From Eubacteriales bacterium (GTDB taxonomy: Bacteria > Bacillota > Clostridia > Oscillospirales > CAG-272): a stretch of 64,000 nt of DNA. Shown here one piece after another: positions 25,680 through 32,553 of this stretch. Every line of letters begins with the position of its first letter. The stretch's first letter is position 1. A program made the translations under genes and the position numbers. The notes under the pieces are model-generated. The model ran no database searches, had not been told where the DNA came from, and worked only from the letters and a program-made list of their open reading frames with translations. The stretch lies in contig JAZRGA010000052.1 of the NCBI GenBank assembly GCA_045643945.1, positions 15,311 to 79,310 on the forward strand, in the 5' to 3' direction.

Positions 25680-26237
25680 ATGAAAGCCACAGGAATTGTG
25701 AGAAGAATTGATGACCTCGGACGTGTAGTTATTCCTAAAGAAATAAGACGAACAATGCGTATCCGCGAGGGCGACCCGCTTGAAATATATACAAACAGAG
25801 AAGGCGAGGTTATTTTTAAAAAGTATTCGCCTATCGGAGAGATAAATTCATTTGCTTCTCAATACGCAGAAACTCTTTACCGCACCTGCAATTTGGAAAT
25901 TCTTATTTCTGACCGTGATGCTGTAATAGCGCTTGCAGGTGTTTCAAAAAAGGAATATATGGACAGAGCATTGAGTCACGAGCTTGAAAAAATTATGGAG
26001 GGAAGAAGCGTTTACCGTTATCGCGAGGGTGATGAATATATTTACCCGATAAACACTCCGACAGGACATTTTGTAAGCTGCGCTATGCCGATAATAACAG
26101 AGGGGGACGTTATCGGTTGCGTGGTAGCCCTTTCGCCCATTGGTAAGGAGCGGACTACCGATATGACTGTATACGATACCGAGGCAAAGCTTATAACGAC
26201 CGCCGCAATATTTTTAGGAAAGCAAATGGAATCTTAA
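25680..26237 (+). CDS. spoVT: Stage V sporulation protein T (AbrB-type N-terminal domain plus GAF-like C-terminal domain)
   Basis: MKATGIVRRIDDLGRVVIPKEIRRTMRIREGDPLEIY is the SpoVT/AbrB swapped-hairpin motif. The length of 185 aa fits SpoVT rather than AbrB. Confidence 0.85.
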   Translation: MKATGIVRRIDDLGRVVIPKEIRRTMRIREGDPLEIYTNREGEVIFKKYSPIGEINSFASQYAETLYRTCNLEILISDRDAVIALAGVSKKEYMDRALSHELEKIMEGRSVYRYREGDEYIYPINTPTGHFVSCAMPIITEGDVIGCVVALSPIGKERTTDMTVYDTEAKLITTAAIFLGKQMES

Positions 26238-26412: not shown

Positions 26413-26501
26413 GGAGAGATATCGAAGTGGTCATAACGGGGCTGACTCGAAATCAGTTTGTGCTAACGCACACGAGGGTTCGAATCCCTCTCTCTCCGCC
26501 A
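26413..26501 (+). tRNA. tRNA-Ser (anticodon CGA), class II with long variable arm, CCA encoded
   Basis: Acceptor GGAGAGA/TCTCTCC. Anticodon stem GCTGA/TCAGT with loop CTCGAAA. Variable arm GTGC-TAAC-GCAC. T-arm GAGGG-TTCGAAT-CCCTC. Discriminator G followed by CCA. Confidence 0.9.
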
Positions 26502-26618: not shown

Positions 26619-26647
26619 TTGACAGGTTTGCCTATATATGATATAAT
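26619..26647 (+). promoter_or_regulatory. Consensus SigA promoter of the five-gene cassette
   Basis: Perfect TTGACA (26619-26624), exactly 17 nt of spacer, then a perfect TATAAT (26642-26647). Confidence 0.6.
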
Positions 26648-26715
26648 TCTACCAGAAGTAGAATTACATTATTTTCATCATAAATCAAAAAAATTCCACA
26701 TCTACGAGATGTAGG
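26645..26715 (+). promoter_or_regulatory. Two CTAC-N5-GTAG inverted repeats (candidate operators)
   Basis: AATTCTAC-cagaa-GTAGAATT (26645-26665) overlaps the -10 box and transcription start. ATCTAC-gagat-GTAGG (26700-26715) lies ~53 bp downstream, just upstream of a possible second, extended -10 promoter (TGaTAGAAT, 26736-26744). Confidence 0.4.
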
Positions 26716-26777
26716 TTTACCTTTTTTCAAATTTGTGATAGAATTATATCAACAAAATACAGGAGGTTTTTATAGGA

Positions 26778-28691
26778 ATGTTAGATAAAAAACACAGCGT
26801 AGGAAAAACAATTGCTACACTCAGAAAAGCAAAAGGATTAACTCAAGTTGAACTTGCCGAGAAGCTCCAAGTCAGCGACAAGGCAATCAGCAAGTGGGAA
26901 AAGGATGATTCCTTTCCAAGCATAGAATTTTTCCCCGCACTTGCCGAATTATTTAATGTTAGTATTGATTATCTCATTACTGGCAAGGCTCCCGAAAAAG
27001 AAATTATTTTAATGTCAAAATTAGAATATTGTGCAAAGACGGATGATCCCTCTTTTTTAAGTAATATCAATTTAAAAGCTACAGATGAAAATGGAAAAAC
27101 AATCTTAAATTACGTAAAGCAGTATGAAAGTTATAATGTTTTTTCTGCAATTTGCGATAAGGACCCAGCTTTAATAAAGAAAATGGATTTTGAAACCGCA
27201 TTTAAGTTTTCGTTAATTGCAAACCGTATTGATATACTCAAAAAAGATATTATTTCGTGTTTAAATTTTCAAAGTTCAAATTTTATGCAACATGTATCAA
27301 AAGCAGGTATTAAAAATCTCTTTCATATTGAAGACAAATCGTACACTCGCTATATTCACGATAAAACATTATGTTGCATAAGTGATGATATGCTTGATAT
27401 AATAGTTACAAATACAAGAATTAACGATGACACAATGCAATATATATTATCAAAGCACGATATAATGACAAGCGTTTGGTATCAAATGTTCCCATATCTA
27501 ATTCATCAAAGTTATCTACATAACAATACCGAATTACTCAACAAAATATTAGAAATATCCATAGGCAACAATCAATATGCGTACGAAAAATATAAAGGAT
27601 ATTACGATACTGATTGTTTGCTACAGGGTGCGGGAAATCTGTTCGCATATTCTGATAGATATTTTGATGAGGGAAGACATGGGCTTGTTAGAATTTTAGA
27701 AAAAACTATAAAGTTAGCTCTTGTGAGAGGTGATTTTGAATTGGTAGAAAAATTCAATGAAATCAATTCAAATATAATGAATCACTATAGGCAAAGTAAA
27801 TGCTACATAGCTAATTCTGATGAAATTCGTGTTGCTAAACTTAAACAAGATAAAAACGTCAGCAACGATGAAATCGCTATACAGTCTGCAATCCATTACG
27901 GAATTATTTGCGTTGATGAATTATTGACTATTAACAATCTTGCACTTGTGAAAAAAACGTTAAATGAATATCCTATAACAATTATTGATTGGACATATAA
28001 TTTAATAAAATCTGACAATTGGAAACCTCTGTTCCAGTTTGCAGTAGATAATAAATTTAATCGCTTGGCTAATATTATATTGAATGCGAAGAAAGAAGAC
28101 GAAATATTTGAATTCCTCTGGTCAACAATTTACCAAACAAATTACTCACAACCCGATATGAGATGTGATATAAGATATCAGCTTTACTCATTAAATCAAA
28201 ATTATCTTAACACTAACAATAAGTATGGATCATATTTTCCTAATTGTATTCCGCATGCGAATTTTGATTCTGTGGTTAGTTATTTACAAAAGTGTAAAGA
28301 ACAAATTGTATTAACCTTAGAAAATCAATTTAATAAAAATAAGGCTATCAAGGATTTAACCAAAGATTATTTTGAAACCGAACTAAAAAAAGGCAATTTC
28401 AAAATTGTTATAATAGAGCTTTGCAAAAGACTGGAGGCTATTCTAAAATTCGATTATCACTATGAAGGTGATCTTTCTGATATGCTCAAACGCTATTGCG
28501 ATAAGCAATTAAAGTGGGAAGAAGACGATGGATGGGGGTATACATCATGGAGAAGGGACGAAAAGACGATAAAAGCACTTACATCATTGCGTCTCCAAAG
28601 AAACAATATTGCTCATCCCGATAAACGCATATCTAATATGAGCCTTGAAGAAATAGAATATTGCATTGATTATATTTGCAAAATGGGATAA
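26778..28691 (+). CDS. XRE-family HTH protein with a long alpha-helical repeat region and a C-terminal DUF4145/HEPN-like module (function unknown)
   Basis: AGGAGG RBS. Residues 7-68, KTIATLRKAKGLTQVELAEKLQVSDKAISKWEKDDSFPSIEFFPALAELFNVSIDYLITG, form a classic Cro/C1 HTH. The C-terminal ~95 aa read ...IIELCKRLEAILKF...TIKALTSLRLQRNNIAHPD...LEEIEYCIDYI, with the Rx4H motif at nt 28599-28616. The middle ~450 aa are helical with at least one ankyrin-like unit (TDENGKTILNYVKQYESYNVF). Confidence 0.6.
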   Translation: MLDKKHSVGKTIATLRKAKGLTQVELAEKLQVSDKAISKWEKDDSFPSIEFFPALAELFNVSIDYLITGKAPEKEIILMSKLEYCAKTDDPSFLSNINLKATDENGKTILNYVKQYESYNVFSAICDKDPALIKKMDFETAFKFSLIANRIDILKKDIISCLNFQSSNFMQHVSKAGIKNLFHIEDKSYTRYIHDKTLCCISDDMLDIIVTNTRINDDTMQYILSKHDIMTSVWYQMFPYLIHQSYLHNNTELLNKILEISIGNNQYAYEKYKGYYDTDCLLQGAGNLFAYSDRYFDEGRHGLVRILEKTIKLALVRGDFELVEKFNEINSNIMNHYRQSKCYIANSDEIRVAKLKQDKNVSNDEIAIQSAIHYGIICVDELLTINNLALVKKTLNEYPITIIDWTYNLIKSDNWKPLFQFAVDNKFNRLANIILNAKKEDEIFEFLWSTIYQTNYSQPDMRCDIRYQLYSLNQNYLNTNNKYGSYFPNCIPHANFDSVVSYLQKCKEQIVLTLENQFNKNKAIKDLTKDYFETELKKGNFKIVIIELCKRLEAILKFDYHYEGDLSDMLKRYCDKQLKWEEDDGWGYTSWRRDEKTIKALTSLRLQRNNIAHPDKRISNMSLEEIEYCIDYICKMG

Positions 28692-28702: not shown

Positions 28703-29419
28703 ATGGATAAATACCAAGAATATATATTTAAAAATTCAAATAGTTATTACGGTTTATCTGTTTGCGGCAAATCTGATTTGGAAAAAGTCATTTTTGAAGA
28801 TAAAATCATATTTAAACAAAACGAAGATATAATGATAACTGATTATGTTTTTTATATAGCAAATATTGGAATTGAATCTGTTCTTTCAATCACAGACGGT
28901 AAAGAAACACCTCTAAAACAAGAGTCAGACCCCCAAAGAAGTCGCAAAAACAGATTCTTTTTACATGTTAGTTTTGATGACAAAATCGATGCTATTAAAA
29001 TTATTTTTAAAAATAATTTAGCGGACGATTTAACTTTTCCCGTTACATATGTGTATGCCGATAAAGAGAAATTTTATGCCAAAAGAGAAAAAGAGCGTAA
29101 AGAAAAATTAATAAAAAAAGCAAATATCAAAGTGACTACCGGCGCGGATTTGGTTAATATTTATTTTCAGCCTTGTTGTAATGATTATGCGCGAACTGAA
29201 ATTATTCTTTATAAAGATGATATGATGATTGCAAAATATAAAGTGAATGCAGAAAGTTTCTTTAAATCAATAAGCGGGTTGGCGTACGGCAAATACATGT
29301 TTACGTTAAAACAGCTTGATTCGAAGGAAAACATTCTTATTGAAACAGCGAAAAAAGCGTTTATTATTAGTGCTCCAGAAATTGATCCAGATGATTTTAT
29401 TCCTTATACAGTTATATGA
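28703..29419 (+). CDS. Hypothetical protein, predicted beta-rich, two-lobed with a KREKERKEKLIKK linker
   Basis: Start at ATG 28703, 7 nt after AAGGAGAG and 11 nt after the upstream stop. 238 aa. No family recognised. The stop overlaps the next start (ATGA at 29416-29419). Confidence 0.55.
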   Translation: MDKYQEYIFKNSNSYYGLSVCGKSDLEKVIFEDKIIFKQNEDIMITDYVFYIANIGIESVLSITDGKETPLKQESDPQRSRKNRFFLHVSFDDKIDAIKIIFKNNLADDLTFPVTYVYADKEKFYAKREKERKEKLIKKANIKVTTGADLVNIYFQPCCNDYARTEIILYKDDMMIAKYKVNAESFFKSISGLAYGKYMFTLKQLDSKENILIETAKKAFIISAPEIDPDDFIPYTVI

Positions 29420-29973
29420 ATAACAAATATTTAAAAGTACAATTTAATTCTGATATTGCAAAGGGCAACGATGATGTTCGTATTTCATTTTATGCAAATA
29501 TCGGATTTTTCATTGAAGTTGCACAAATGTTTGAATTTAATTTGCGTAAACTGATATGTTACGAAAGATCTGTTAAGGAAATAGAACAAGGCGAGATCAC
29601 CAAAGAAAATGTGGAACGTATATGCGCAAAGTACGATCAGTATTATGATGACACATATTTTAAAAAATCCAAATTCACTTTAGGAAAGCTTATCGGAGAA
29701 TCAAAAAGTGATTCCTCGATCCCGAAGGAGGTCTTCGATTTCCTTGATGAGTTGAATGATTTTAGAGTAAATCTTGTCCATAAGATTTTTCAAAACAATA
29801 TCATTAGACATTATTTTGATTCTGCAGAATTTGTCCTTGAATATACGAACAAACGAATTATCCCTATGACGGATAAAGCGATTGAAATTAATAAAGTTAT
29901 CATAGAAATAATTGATTTATATCGTAATGACTTGCATGACTATAAAAAGCAAGTTGGAATAAAAATCAACTAA
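29416..29973 (+). CDS. Hypothetical small helical protein with a DUF4145/HEPN-like Rx4H motif
   Basis: 185 aa. GFFIEVAQMFEFNLRKLI ... TLGKLIGESKSDSSIPKEVFDFLDELNDFRVNLVHKIF, with the Rx4H motif (R-VNLV-H) at nt 29764-29781. Translationally coupled to the preceding gene. Confidence 0.5.
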   Translation: MNNKYLKVQFNSDIAKGNDDVRISFYANIGFFIEVAQMFEFNLRKLICYERSVKEIEQGEITKENVERICAKYDQYYDDTYFKKSKFTLGKLIGESKSDSSIPKEVFDFLDELNDFRVNLVHKIFQNNIIRHYFDSAEFVLEYTNKRIIPMTDKAIEINKVIIEIIDLYRNDLHDYKKQVGIKIN

Positions 29974-30091: not shown

Positions 30092-30583
30092 TTGTTTTAT
30101 GTTTTGATGATTGTGATAGCGTTTTACAATCTTTTCTTATATACAATTTTTCGTAGCGGCATATATTCCTATTTTCGTTTATCAAAAATGAGCAAAACAT
30201 ACATTAAGAAAAACAGAAAAGGATTTATCAATTATTGGTTGTATTATTCAATCAATAAGCAGAACTCGCTTGGAGCTTTATACGGTTTAAATATTGCTTT
30301 CTTTATAGCCACGGTTACTTTCATGTTTTTTACGATTGCATTGGGATATATTAGGGTGATTCAGCCAATACTTTTTGTATTTTCTATCCTAGTTTGCATA
30401 ATAGAGATACCGTGTATGATTATTGCTTCAATTCACAGCTCCAACGAGGATTATGGAAAACCGTTTGTTTTTCTTGCAAAACGAAAGGGTTTCAGAGGAT
30501 ACACCAGCTCGCTGATTGAATGTCTATCTTGGATATTGACTGTTCTTTTGATTTATTTATCTTTTCAAATATTATTACGATGA
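30092..30583 (+). CDS. Hypothetical 4-TM membrane protein
   Basis: TTG start 9 nt after GGAGG (30078-30082). Hydrophobic segments MFYVLMIVIAFYNLFLYTIF, LNIAFFIATVTFMFFTIALGYI, ILFVFSILVCIIEIPCMIIASI, LIECLSWILTVLLIYLSF. Confidence 0.5.
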   Translation: MFYVLMIVIAFYNLFLYTIFRSGIYSYFRLSKMSKTYIKKNRKGFINYWLYYSINKQNSLGALYGLNIAFFIATVTFMFFTIALGYIRVIQPILFVFSILVCIIEIPCMIIASIHSSNEDYGKPFVFLAKRKGFRGYTSSLIECLSWILTVLLIYLSFQILLR

Positions 30584-30640
30584 TTTATCATTTTTTATCA
30601 AATATTTCGCAACACAACTATAAAAGTATTGAGAGGTTAT

Positions 30641-30916
30641 ATGTCACACAGTAAATTTGCAAAACGAGGAAAGTCGTTATACATTGAAAAATGGAATCCG
30701 TCCGCTAAAAGATTTATTAATACTTGCATCATTTGCGGAGCGCAAGGGTACAACCCGAGTATTGACGATGCGGGATTTGTTTATGATAATGAGCAAAAGA
30801 TTGCTAATTTTGAGCATCGAGCCATTCGGGATGAGCTTAAGCGCACTTTAAATCCATTATCATTAGATTCTTTGGGGCGTTGCGACAATTGCGCAAGGCT
30901 AATGGAAAAGGATTGA
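30641..30916 (+). CDS. Hypothetical small protein with a CxxC...CxxC (zinc-ribbon-like) pair
   Basis: MSHSKFAKRGKS... with CIICGAQGY and CDNCARLM about 50 residues apart. GAGAGG RBS. The track start at 30629 is rejected in favour of ATG 30641. Confidence 0.45.
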   Translation: MSHSKFAKRGKSLYIEKWNPSAKRFINTCIICGAQGYNPSIDDAGFVYDNEQKIANFEHRAIRDELKRTLNPLSLDSLGRCDNCARLMEKD

Positions 30917-30987: not shown

Positions 30988-32553
30988 TTATGCCGAAAGA
31001 AAGTTTTTAATGGCTTTTTTTATTCCTTTTGGTGAGATAGCTTTGAGGAGTATGAGAATAGTAAGATAGATAACCGTTATAATAACGATATGAAGCGCTA
31101 TTTCGAGTCTGTTTTCTGCGTAGGTATTGAGATTATATAAGATAAACGCGGTTGCAGATGTAGCGCATATTATTCCCATTATCGGTTTTATTATCCAGTC
31201 GAATATTTTAAATTTGATTTTTGTGGCGCACAAAAGCTTAGTAATACTAAGTGTCGCATTTACCGTTTCGGTAAAATAAACCGTGATGATATAGCCGATA
31301 ATTCCGTAACGTGGCAAGAGCATCCATACTAATATTACCGATAGCAGGGCATCGACTATATTTATTATCATACAGTAAAATTGATGTCCGAGTCCTTTGA
31401 GTATAGAGTCTACCGATGTATCGAGATACATTATAGGCACAAGCGGAGCGATAAAAATAATATATTTAATTATATTTTTATCAGTGAAAAGTACAAATCC
31501 AAATTCATTCGCAAGGCATATGAATATTCCCGCTACACAGACTGAGTATATTAATACGGTTTTTAATACCTTACTTGTAATACGTTCAATGCGCTCAAAA
31601 TCGCCGCTCGCTGCGGACTCGGATATTTCGGGGACAAGTAAACCTGCAAATGATGAGGATATTGCAGAGGGAAAGAGAACAAGCGGAAAAATTATACTGT
31701 GAAGACTTCCGTAGGTGGCGAGTGAGGCATCGCGCCCCGAGCCGCTTTTTTGTAAGCCCCAGGGAATAAGTAGATGCTCGATTGTAACGAGTGCCGAGCG
31801 AACATATGCGCTAAAAGCAACTGGCAGAGTAAAGGGAATAAGCTTTTTAGCAAGCGAGTCGTCGGCGTGACCCTTGCTTTTTTGTCTTTTTATATCTATT
31901 ACATAAGAGAGTATATGAATAATAAACGAGGAAATCTCTGCAATAGACCCGCCCCAAATTACCGCAAGACAAGCACTCTCTACATCGCTTGCAACTGTTG
32001 CGCTCAGTAAATATATGCAAGAAAATATTTTAATGGCGTAACCGAAAACCTGAACCGCCGCATTTTTTTGTACCTTTCTTACCGCTACAAAATATCCGCT
32101 TATCGAGGATGAAAGAGCGATAGGAACTAATGTATAAGAAAGGACCTTTAAAGCCGTCAACGTTCGCATATCCTTTAGAATGCGTTCCGCAATAATTGGA
32201 GAAAGCAGGTACAAGCCTATTGATACCGCAAGGCTGATAAAAAATGCAAACGCAAGACTTTTTTTCATTATCGCTTTAACGGTAGAGGCTCGATTTTTTT
32301 CCTCAAGTCCTCCAAGAGCCTCAGAAACAAGCTTTGTTGTTGCAAGACTTATTCCCGAGGTTGCAAGGGTCAAAGCGAAGCCGTAAACGCTTGAAACCAG
32401 AGTAAAGAGTCCCATAGCGACCGTACCGATTTTATTTGTTAAATATACGTTAAACGCTACCGATATATAACGAATGGCAATCGATACCGCCGTCATTAAA
32501 AATCCGTTTATAAAAAATCGTTTTAGTCTGTCCAAGAAAACACTGCCTTTCAA
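30988..32553 (-). CDS. spoVB: MOP-superfamily flippase, SpoVB/MurJ-like polysaccharide or peptidoglycan-precursor exporter
   Basis: 521 aa with about 14 TM segments. The N-terminal region FINGFLMTAVSIAIRYISVAFNVYLTNKIGTVAMGLF... is typical of stage V sporulation protein B / YabM-like proteins. The annotated start is a TTG without a clear SD, so the start is uncertain. Confidence 0.65.
   Translation of the reverse strand: MKGSVFLDRLKRFFINGFLMTAVSIAIRYISVAFNVYLTNKIGTVAMGLFTLVSSVYGFALTLATSGISLATTKLVSEALGGLEEKNRASTVKAIMKKSLAFAFFISLAVSIGLYLLSPIIAERILKDMRTLTALKVLSYTLVPIALSSSISGYFVAVRKVQKNAAVQVFGYAIKIFSCIYLLSATVASDVESACLAVIWGGSIAEISSFIIHILSYVIDIKRQKSKGHADDSLAKKLIPFTLPVAFSAYVRSALVTIEHLLIPWGLQKSGSGRDASLATYGSLHSIIFPLVLFPSAISSSFAGLLVPEISESAASGDFERIERITSKVLKTVLIYSVCVAGIFICLANEFGFVLFTDKNIIKYIIFIAPLVPIMYLDTSVDSILKGLGHQFYCMIINIVDALLSVILVWMLLPRYGIIGYIITVYFTETVNATLSITKLLCATKIKFKIFDWIIKPIMGIICATSATAFILYNLNTYAENRLEIALHIVIITVIYLTILILLKAISPKGIKKAIKNFLSA

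Follow-up and report, generated by a model that had tools for sequence, protein, structure and literature searches.

An XRE-type regulator with a C-terminal HEPN-like domain heads a mobile operon of gut-associated Firmicutes

This analysis concerns a cassette of three adjacent genes, here called A, B and C, in a 64-kb stretch of DNA from an Eubacteriales bacterium (contig JAZRGA010000052.1); the whole stretch is referred to as the window. Gene A encodes a protein of 637 amino acids (aa) that joins an XRE helix-turn-helix (HTH) to a HEPN-like domain through a long helical region. The parts of the cassette are listed here (coordinates in the window, strand, description).

26778 to 28691, forward: gene A, 637-aa protein of XRE HTH, helical middle and HEPN-like domain
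26802 to 26987, forward: Cro/C1 (XRE) HTH DNA-binding domain, gene A residues 9-70 (Pfam, Foldseek)
27000 to 28259, forward: middle region, gene A residues 75-494, mostly helical (AlphaFold2, AF2, model)
28356 to 28688, forward: HEPN-like domain, gene A residues about 527-637 (AF2 secondary structure, motifs, conservation)
28434 to 28448, forward: E553-x3-K557, the HEPN helix-2 Ex3[KR] motif (conservation; motif defined in PMC3710099)
28599 to 28616, forward: R608-N609-x3-H613, the HEPN Rx4H catalytic-type motif, at the end of helix 595-612 (conservation)
28703 to 29419, forward: gene B, 238 aa, cytoplasmic, tandem Ig/FN3-like (AF2, Foldseek)
29416 to 29973, forward: gene C, 185 aa, stand-alone HEPN-like protein (motifs, hhalign)

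The open reading frame (ORF) of gene A is intact, with an ATG start and a GGAGG Shine-Dalgarno site ahead of it. An earlier note on this DNA, made from the sequence alone, had proposed a tripartite protein with an XRE HTH, a long helical middle and a HEPN-like C-terminus. Sequence, conservation and predicted secondary structure all back this layout. The peptides quoted in that note were found in gene A where it had placed them: LTQVELAEKLQVSDKAISKWEKD is residues 21-43, TDENGKTILNYVKQYESYNVF residues 102-122, CKRLEAILKF residues 549-558 and LEEIEYCIDYI residues 623-633. The Cro/C1-type reading of the N-terminus agrees with Pfam, where HTH_3 (PF01381) matches residues 12-66 at E 3.6e-14 with 53 bits against a gathering cut-off of 23, and HTH_19 matches the same domain at E about 4e-14. 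An AF2 model of A was built on an alignment of 45 sequences (mean predicted local distance difference test, pLDDT, 83.8; predicted TM-score, pTM, 0.68). Foldseek places its HTH with the DNA-binding domains of P22 c2, ImmR and SinR (TM-score 0.83-0.90, root-mean-square deviation, rmsd, 1.3-1.7 Å). Proteins A, B and C have no segments resembling transmembrane (TM) helices, and A is predicted to be a cytoplasmic three-part protein.

An XRE HTH followed by a long helical region would also suit a peptide-sensing quorum regulator of the RRNPP (TPR) type, and Foldseek lists ComR, PlcR, Rgg2 and PrgX for A. Those matches are driven by the HTH, with TM-scores of 0.19-0.23 and rmsd of 15-22 Å. No TPR model of Pfam matches A or any of its 45 homologues, the C-terminus is a distinct HEPN-like domain, and no conserved small peptide gene lies alongside A. 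An end-to-end alignment with this family, which the earlier note had named as evidence against its own proposal, was looked for and not found. The RRNPP identity is effectively refuted.

According to Anantharaman et al. 2013 (PMC3710099), two sequence features mark HEPN domains: Rx4-6H, which closes core helix 3 and whose arginine is followed by a polar residue (N, D or H), and an acidic residue in core helix 2, typically within Ex3[KR]; inserts occur between helices 2 and 3. The fold itself is a four-helix up-down bundle of two alpha-hairpins, with the insert between helices 2 and 3. Both motifs are present in A. The acidic/basic helix pair that the earlier note saw in CKRLEAILKF is the published Ex3[KR] motif (E553 and K557). 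The AF2 model has core helices at residues 529-537, 541-558 (which carries E553-x3-K557), 595-612 and 623-635. An insert between the second and the third consists of a helix (566-577) and a hairpin (579-593). R608 and N609 end helix 595-612, and H613 opens the loop that follows. The helices of this part have pLDDT of about 80-94, and their layout fits a HEPN bundle with an insert at the level of secondary structure.

Conservation points the same way. R608, N609, H613, R551 and E553 are invariant in the alignment of 45 homologues (41-88% identity). R-N-x3-H is retained in 10 sequences that reach down to 24% identity (the distant relatives being 24-29% identical), and E553 is replaced by D in the two most distant. 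The R/H pair, whose conservation the earlier note had proposed as a check, is thus kept over the whole range. RNxxxH was found in 118 of 120 homologues, the two exceptions being fragments, and in 141 of 148 cluster representatives. Three of the seven exceptions among the representatives have lost the motif (two with H changed to Y or F, one degenerate), one has D after the R, and the rest are fragments. Judged by this retention, the C-terminal motif is far beyond chance.

The earlier note had assigned the C-terminus to DUF4145. This did not hold: DUF4145 (PF13643) has no match to A at E ≤ 1 and none among the 45 homologues at E ≤ 0.01. Closest to A in Pfam is HEPN_RiboL-PSP (PF18735; E 2.2e-4, 21.6 bits), which matches 21 of the 45 homologues at E ≤ 0.01 (best 3.6e-6); several relatives of A already bear a precomputed PF18735 domain. 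The Ribo L-PSP-HEPN clade is distantly related to the AbiD and AbiF HEPN families (Anantharaman et al. 2013, PMC3710099), and is characterised by fusion with endoRNase L-PSP or by ParB in the same operon (PMC3710099, Table 1). It is the only HEPN model to score on the A family, and it shares RNxxxH, the upstream Ex3[KR] and the insert between helices 2 and 3. The A family differs in its sub-threshold score, in having neither the L-PSP fusion nor the ParB operon, and in occurring only at the C-terminus of an HTH-helical architecture. Neither an L-PSP nor a ParB domain was found in A, B, C or their neighbours, so the associations that define PF18735 are missing here. Membership of A among HEPN domains is supported by motifs, conservation, the sub-threshold family match and the secondary-structure layout. 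The predicted activity of the domain is that of a metal-independent RNase, the Rx4H/Ex3K active site being intact.

The family is large. Among 5.8 billion proteins searched, A has hundreds of full-length relatives, with lengths of about 600-640 aa and identities of 41-88%. When a profile of its last 143 residues was run against 1.84 billion representatives, 277 clusters matched at E ≤ 1e-3, of which 229 reached E ≤ 1e-10. This gives a family size of about 230-280 clusters at 50% identity; at 90% identity the members form about 870 clusters. The domain lies at the C-terminus in every case listed from this search, and this HEPN subtype therefore appears essentially confined to the HTH-helical-HEPN architecture. 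Hosts on record are uncultured Clostridia, Eubacteriales, Anaeroplasmataceae and Bacilli from gut samples. The family belongs to gut-associated Firmicutes and is common in the gut metagenomes of humans and animals. A scan of genome contigs gave mostly HTH-only matches, since its back-translated patterns were derived from the HTH. Full-text literature searches turned up no published XRE-HTH-HEPN protein that has an Ig-like partner. In NCBIfam and PHROGs, A has only HTH-level matches and B and C have none; in PADLOC-DB v2, gene B has one marginal match (0.011) and gene C none.

The middle region was described in the earlier note as long and helical, with at least one ankyrin-like unit that suggested a sensor. 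Length and helical content are borne out by the AF2 model; the ankyrin-like unit is not confirmed, as no Ank model matches at E ≤ 1 in the window protein or at E ≤ 0.01 in the 45 homologues. The ankyrin-like motif D103-E-N-G-K-T is conserved in A proteins of standard length, and its segment is missing from natural short forms. Profile and single-sequence searches with the middle region found no relatives among PDB sequences, and Pfam holds none. Its N-terminal half (residues about 107-352) is variable or dispensable and its C-terminal half (about 360-470) is conserved.

Three natural size classes bear on this division (loci recovered in our searches carry L numbers, individual proteins P numbers). 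A short form of about 350-370 aa is without residues of about 107-352 (L128, at L128:3757-4815; P0376; P0411). The standard form has about 600-650 aa. A long form of about 700-757 aa has a different insert (L036, L085, L086, P0473). The HTH and RNxxxH are retained in every class. L167 encodes a further A-type variant of 639 aa, which shares the HTH and operator, differs in the middle and is not accompanied by gene B. Because short, standard and long forms exist in nature, the N-terminal half of the middle can be regarded as a variable module. Comparison of these sequences leaves three constant parts of A, namely the HTH, residues of about 360-470 and the HEPN domain.

In most lineages gene A never travels alone. 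The core of the operon is A-B, and the subclade to which the window belongs has A-B-C. B lies next to A in each full-length locus recovered except L167 and L207; the A-B loci are L001, L002-4, L005, L006, L007, L009, L036, L085, L086, L087, L101, L105, L109, L120, L128 and L188. The view of the earlier note, that autoregulation, sensing and an effector could be combined in one polypeptide, overlooks the co-operonic B and, in the window, C. The intergenic gaps in the window are 11 nt (A/B) and -4 nt (B/C).

The true start of gene B is the ATG at 28703, 11 nt past the stop of A, with AGGAG 7 nt upstream. Its AF2 model (pLDDT 90.5) has two beta-sandwich domains linked by a helix (residues 121-140), and Foldseek matches it to tandem FN3/Ig proteins (E 2.6e-6). 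NIYFQPC is invariant in B; as a strand motif, NIYFQPC(C) is unusual for a beta-sandwich. The ATG of gene C overlaps the TGA of B (ATGA), and the two genes are translationally coupled. Gene C is restricted to part of the family, having been found in 8 of the A-B loci recovered. E40-x3-R44 and R117-x4-H122 are invariant in 33 homologues of C, and R-x4-H was found in 119 of 120. Aligned with the HEPN domain of A by hhalign, C has both motifs in register (E 5.6e-4, probability 30%). One member of the C family matches PF18735 (E 2.5e-4). DUF4145 gave the relatives of C a single score of 0.062, and PDB sequence and profile searches with C returned nothing meaningful. C is most simply read as a second, stand-alone HEPN protein.

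Upstream of A, positions 26619-26751 form one conserved regulatory region.

26619 to 26647, forward: promoter P1, TTGACA-17 nt-TATAAT with extended TG (12 of 12 matches to the sigma-70 consensus)
26645 to 26665, no strand: operator O1, perfect palindrome AATTCTAC-N5-GTAGAATT overlapping the P1 -10, predicted binding site of an HTH dimer
26702 to 26720, no strand: second site, CTAC-gagat-GTAGGTTTAC, whose GTAGGTTTAC block is both an O1-like half-site and the P2 -35
26716 to 26744, forward: promoter P2, TTTACC-17 nt-TAGAAT with extended TG, lying about 35 nt ahead of the ATG

The O1 palindrome occurs once within the window. At homologous loci TTGAC-N17-TATAAT recurs at the same distance. Of 11 loci identified purely from protein similarity, 8 have CTAC-N5-GTAG at -120 to -133. 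The GTAGGTTTAC block stands at -59 to -67 in the window, L001, L002, L005, L009 and L207, with near-variants elsewhere, and in these same six the centres of O1 and the second site are 60-61 bp apart. The equivalent of P2, TTTACn-N17-TGnTAnAAT, is conserved in L001, L002, L005, L009, L006 and others. Even loci whose A proteins share only 30-48% identity keep this layout and spacing.

A metagenome scan found the palindrome beside at least 23 genes with an HTH of A's clade, most of its other matches being expected by chance. Among the 23 listed genes, 8 are full-length or short A homologues followed by B (5 of them also by C), and L167 is the divergent A-type gene. The rest encode XRE-HTH proteins of about 200 aa with four TM helices. 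In eight such HTH-4TM genes (L093, L095, L104, L112, L125, L176, L197 and L201) the palindrome lies 19-49 nt upstream of the start; the proteins have about 195-210 aa, the recognition helix YSDKAISKWE and four C-terminal TM helices. Loci L087-L206 are not independent evidence for the operator, because the scan that gave them holds many chance matches. Since the adjoining genes share one HTH clade (recognition helix SDKA[VI]SKWE), the palindrome is taken to be the operator of that clade. Since it also precedes HTH-4TM genes, one HTH-operator pair appears common to two very different protein architectures.

Autoregulation, which the earlier note had raised as a possibility, is strongly supported by these data: a conserved palindrome overlaps the -10 of gene A's own promoter and is also found upstream of HTH genes of the same clade. 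That A represses its own transcription at P1 is the straightforward inference. In this respect A resembles XRE autorepressors such as P22 c2, SinR, ImmR, CapH and RstR, to which its first 70 residues are similar in structure (the TM-scores given above) and in sequence (33-40% identity), and which likewise have a palindromic operator over their own -10. A differs from them in having about 560 further residues with an enzyme-like domain, and in an HTH-operator pair that is also used by membrane proteins of about 200 aa.

A could be a transcription factor and nothing else, its HEPN-like domain a non-catalytic module that binds a ligand or partner and tunes DNA binding, as in MtlR-type and nucleotidyltransferase-associated HEPN proteins, with B and C as co-regulated cargo or co-regulators. 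In its favour, conservation in the system is highest in the HTH and the operator region, some HEPN families are no longer catalytic (PMC3710099), and the neighbourhoods carry no signal of toxicity or defence. However, non-catalytic HEPN families lose Rx4-6H (PMC3710099), whereas R, N, H and the acidic residue are strictly conserved here. Changes of H to Y or F are confined to rare A members, and the operon has gained C, another protein that carries these motifs. We consider a role purely in transcription unlikely.

The leader of the operon is long, about 125 nt from P1. It was searched for a structured RNA upstream of A, and no Rfam match was found; the sequence between the conserved blocks is not conserved. 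A reading of the conserved blocks as an RNA element was also rejected: they coincide with the -35 and -10 hexamers, and the palindrome also accompanies HTH genes without a nuclease. The leader enters a further alternative, in which A is an RNase tethered to DNA that is parked at promoters and cuts RNA while it is being transcribed from its own operon or from invading DNA with similar sites. DNA-binding and RNase modules are fused in a fixed order throughout the family, and two operator-like sites at a fixed 60-61 bp bracket the 5' leader. Against this, the idea is purely conceptual, the leader has no known RNA family or conserved structure, and other proteins with the same HTH and operator have no nuclease. 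We regard a tethered RNase as very improbable.

The cassette is mobile, as seen from its low guanine-plus-cytosine (GC) content, its position next to a tRNA gene, its differing neighbourhoods and the occasional recombinase. The tRNA gene lies directly upstream and is possibly an integration landmark.

26413 to 26501, forward: tRNA-Ser(CGA) (ARAGORN; Rfam tRNA, 54.3 bits)

GC is about 0.30 from about 26500 to 30500-30900, against 0.39-0.43 in the flanks. The cassette sits between spoVT (25680-26237) and a membrane-protein gene on the reverse strand (30988-32553), which we take to be SpoVB/MATE-like on the basis of its sequence and an analogy to B. subtilis yabM. No direct repeats were found flanking the window cassette. 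Other loci have different housekeeping neighbours each time, and recombinases or an integrase are the only neighbours that recur. Large serine recombinases, single or in tandem pairs, lie beside A-B in three loci (L002:3431-5029, L085:4253-6885 and L086:110-2990), and in some genomes the cassette may ride on small integrative elements. L207:632-2670 shares 90.6% DNA identity with window positions 26638-28691, and this match starts exactly at the -10/O1 and stops exactly where gene A ends. L207 lacks B and C, and the gene next to its copy of A encodes a tyrosine integrase on the other strand. These bounds of homology, from operator to the stop of A and without B or C, suggest cassette-like exchange.

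Several side observations concern the surroundings. L086 also has a GIY-YIG protein. In L002 the cassette adjoins spoIIAA-spoIIAB-sigF-spoVA; sporulation neighbours may be a coincidence in spore-forming hosts. The low-GC tail after gene C holds a 163-aa multi-TM orphan ORF (30092-30583) and a 95-aa orphan ORF with CxxC...CxxC spacing, possibly a zinc ribbon (30629-30916). Neither was found in any other cassette locus.

Two contexts were considered for the family and set aside. A defence-island setting does not agree with 78 neighbour proteins from 16 loci, which are mostly housekeeping; the PADLOC matches among them look generic. A phage origin was also rejected, since both viral-contig loci (IMG/VR) with a B relative look like integrative elements that bear a recombinase.

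Mobility also raises the alternative that A is the maintenance (immunity-type) repressor of a small integrative element, in which the RNase domain and B and C serve the life cycle of the element or exclude competitors. The HTH of A resembles the ImmR, cI and c2 repressors. Serine recombinases accompany the cassette in three loci and a tyrosine integrase in L207, two loci are on IMG/VR contigs, and the window copy abuts a tRNA gene. On the other side, most loci, the window included, have housekeeping flanks and no recombinase or element gene with the two or three genes, the window copy has no flanking direct repeats, and there are no PHROG matches. An element repressor seems to us improbable.

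We prefer to read A-B(-C) as a toxin-antitoxin (TA)-like or abortive-infection-like module with an autorepressor and an RNA-cleaving effector in one polypeptide, a reading whose chances we judge to be about even. An HTH dimer of A would bind O1 over the -10 of its own strong promoter and repress the operon. It would probably also bind the related site at the P2 -35, 60 bp downstream, where it may repress, activate or take part in looping, and the operon would be kept under tight autoregulation. The helical middle, with its variable N-terminal half, would most likely be a regulatory, sensor or partner-binding scaffold. Other HEPN enzymes become active when two HEPN domains pair. Here the RNase site could form when two such domains come together, either A with A or A with C, the latter then being an extra HEPN subunit. 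The variable helical insert, B or both may sense a trigger or restrain the nuclease, and B, read here as the obligate partner, would either hold the RNase in check or provide target recognition. The outcome would be RNA cleavage in a TA-like or abortive-infection-like response.

A more specific proposal is that the cassette is a previously undescribed immunity/addiction system of gut Clostridia and Bacilli, in which A is at once autorepressor, sensor (through the insert and/or B) and HEPN effector. Release from DNA or binding of a trigger would then de-repress the operon and unleash RNA cleavage together. We offer this version tentatively, our doubts somewhat outweighing our confidence.

A number of results weigh against reading the cassette as a conflict module. 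The 21.6 bits of A fall under the PF18735 gathering score of 28.4. Foldseek searches with the uncropped A model against PDB and BFVD returned HTH matches only, leaving the HEPN fold unconfirmed by superposition, and the HEPN domain, used as a profile or as a single sequence, found nothing meaningful among PDB sequences. HEPN membership therefore rests on motifs, conservation and layout and not on three-dimensional comparison. Interaction of B or C with A, and toxicity of the module, are predicted only. Because A-only loci exist (L167, L207), B is not universally required. No source checked has a name for A, B or C beyond "hypothetical protein". In PADLOC-DB v2, A matches through its HTH alone (RmrA, HTH_VI and CapH models) and no defence system was found. 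The neighbourhoods are not enriched in defence genes, and 2.9 million viral contigs contain only 2 relatives of gene B.

Comparison with known systems shows where the conflict-module reading has precedent. HEPN-MNT and RnlA/LsoA-RnlB are likewise small mobile operons with a HEPN RNase-type effector, DNA-binding autoregulation and a partner directly downstream. Unlike those systems, the cassette has the autorepressor and the putative toxin in one polypeptide, and the partner of A is tandem Ig/FN3-like and neither an MNT nucleotidyltransferase nor RnlB. Of the features expected of a type II TA system, the cassette shows the operon layout and an autoregulatory operator; neutralisation and toxicity are predicted only. 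RNase L and Ire1 (whose KEN domain is a HEPN domain) and Csx1 and Csm6 (CARF-HTH-HEPN) share with A a sensor or scaffold followed by a C-terminal HEPN RNase that dimerisation switches on, which in A is a prediction. A has no kinase or CARF domain, is not related to them in sequence beyond the HEPN motifs, and has a bona fide N-terminal HTH of the XRE operator-binding type. CapRel-type fused TA immune sensors also have regulation, sensing and effector in a single chain; this likeness would be conceptual, and their domains are unrelated to those of A. The cassette can be described as a putative HEPN-based conflict module that is well defined bioinformatically: its architecture is well supported, and its function we infer.

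Cas13, Csm6/Csx1, RNase L, several Abi systems and many TA pairs all act through HEPN RNases. The central question for all of them is how each stays silent and then switches on. The A family is wired differently, with the predicted RNase covalently joined to a sequence-specific operator-binding domain and paired with a cytoplasmic tandem Ig-like protein. It offers a definable region of operator and two promoters, and natural short, standard and long forms of the presumed sensor. If the HEPN domain is non-catalytic, the family would be a large family of XRE regulators, of modest interest. If it functions as predicted, it would represent a new architecture for RNA-targeting immunity/addiction modules and a compact, self-regulating RNase switch.

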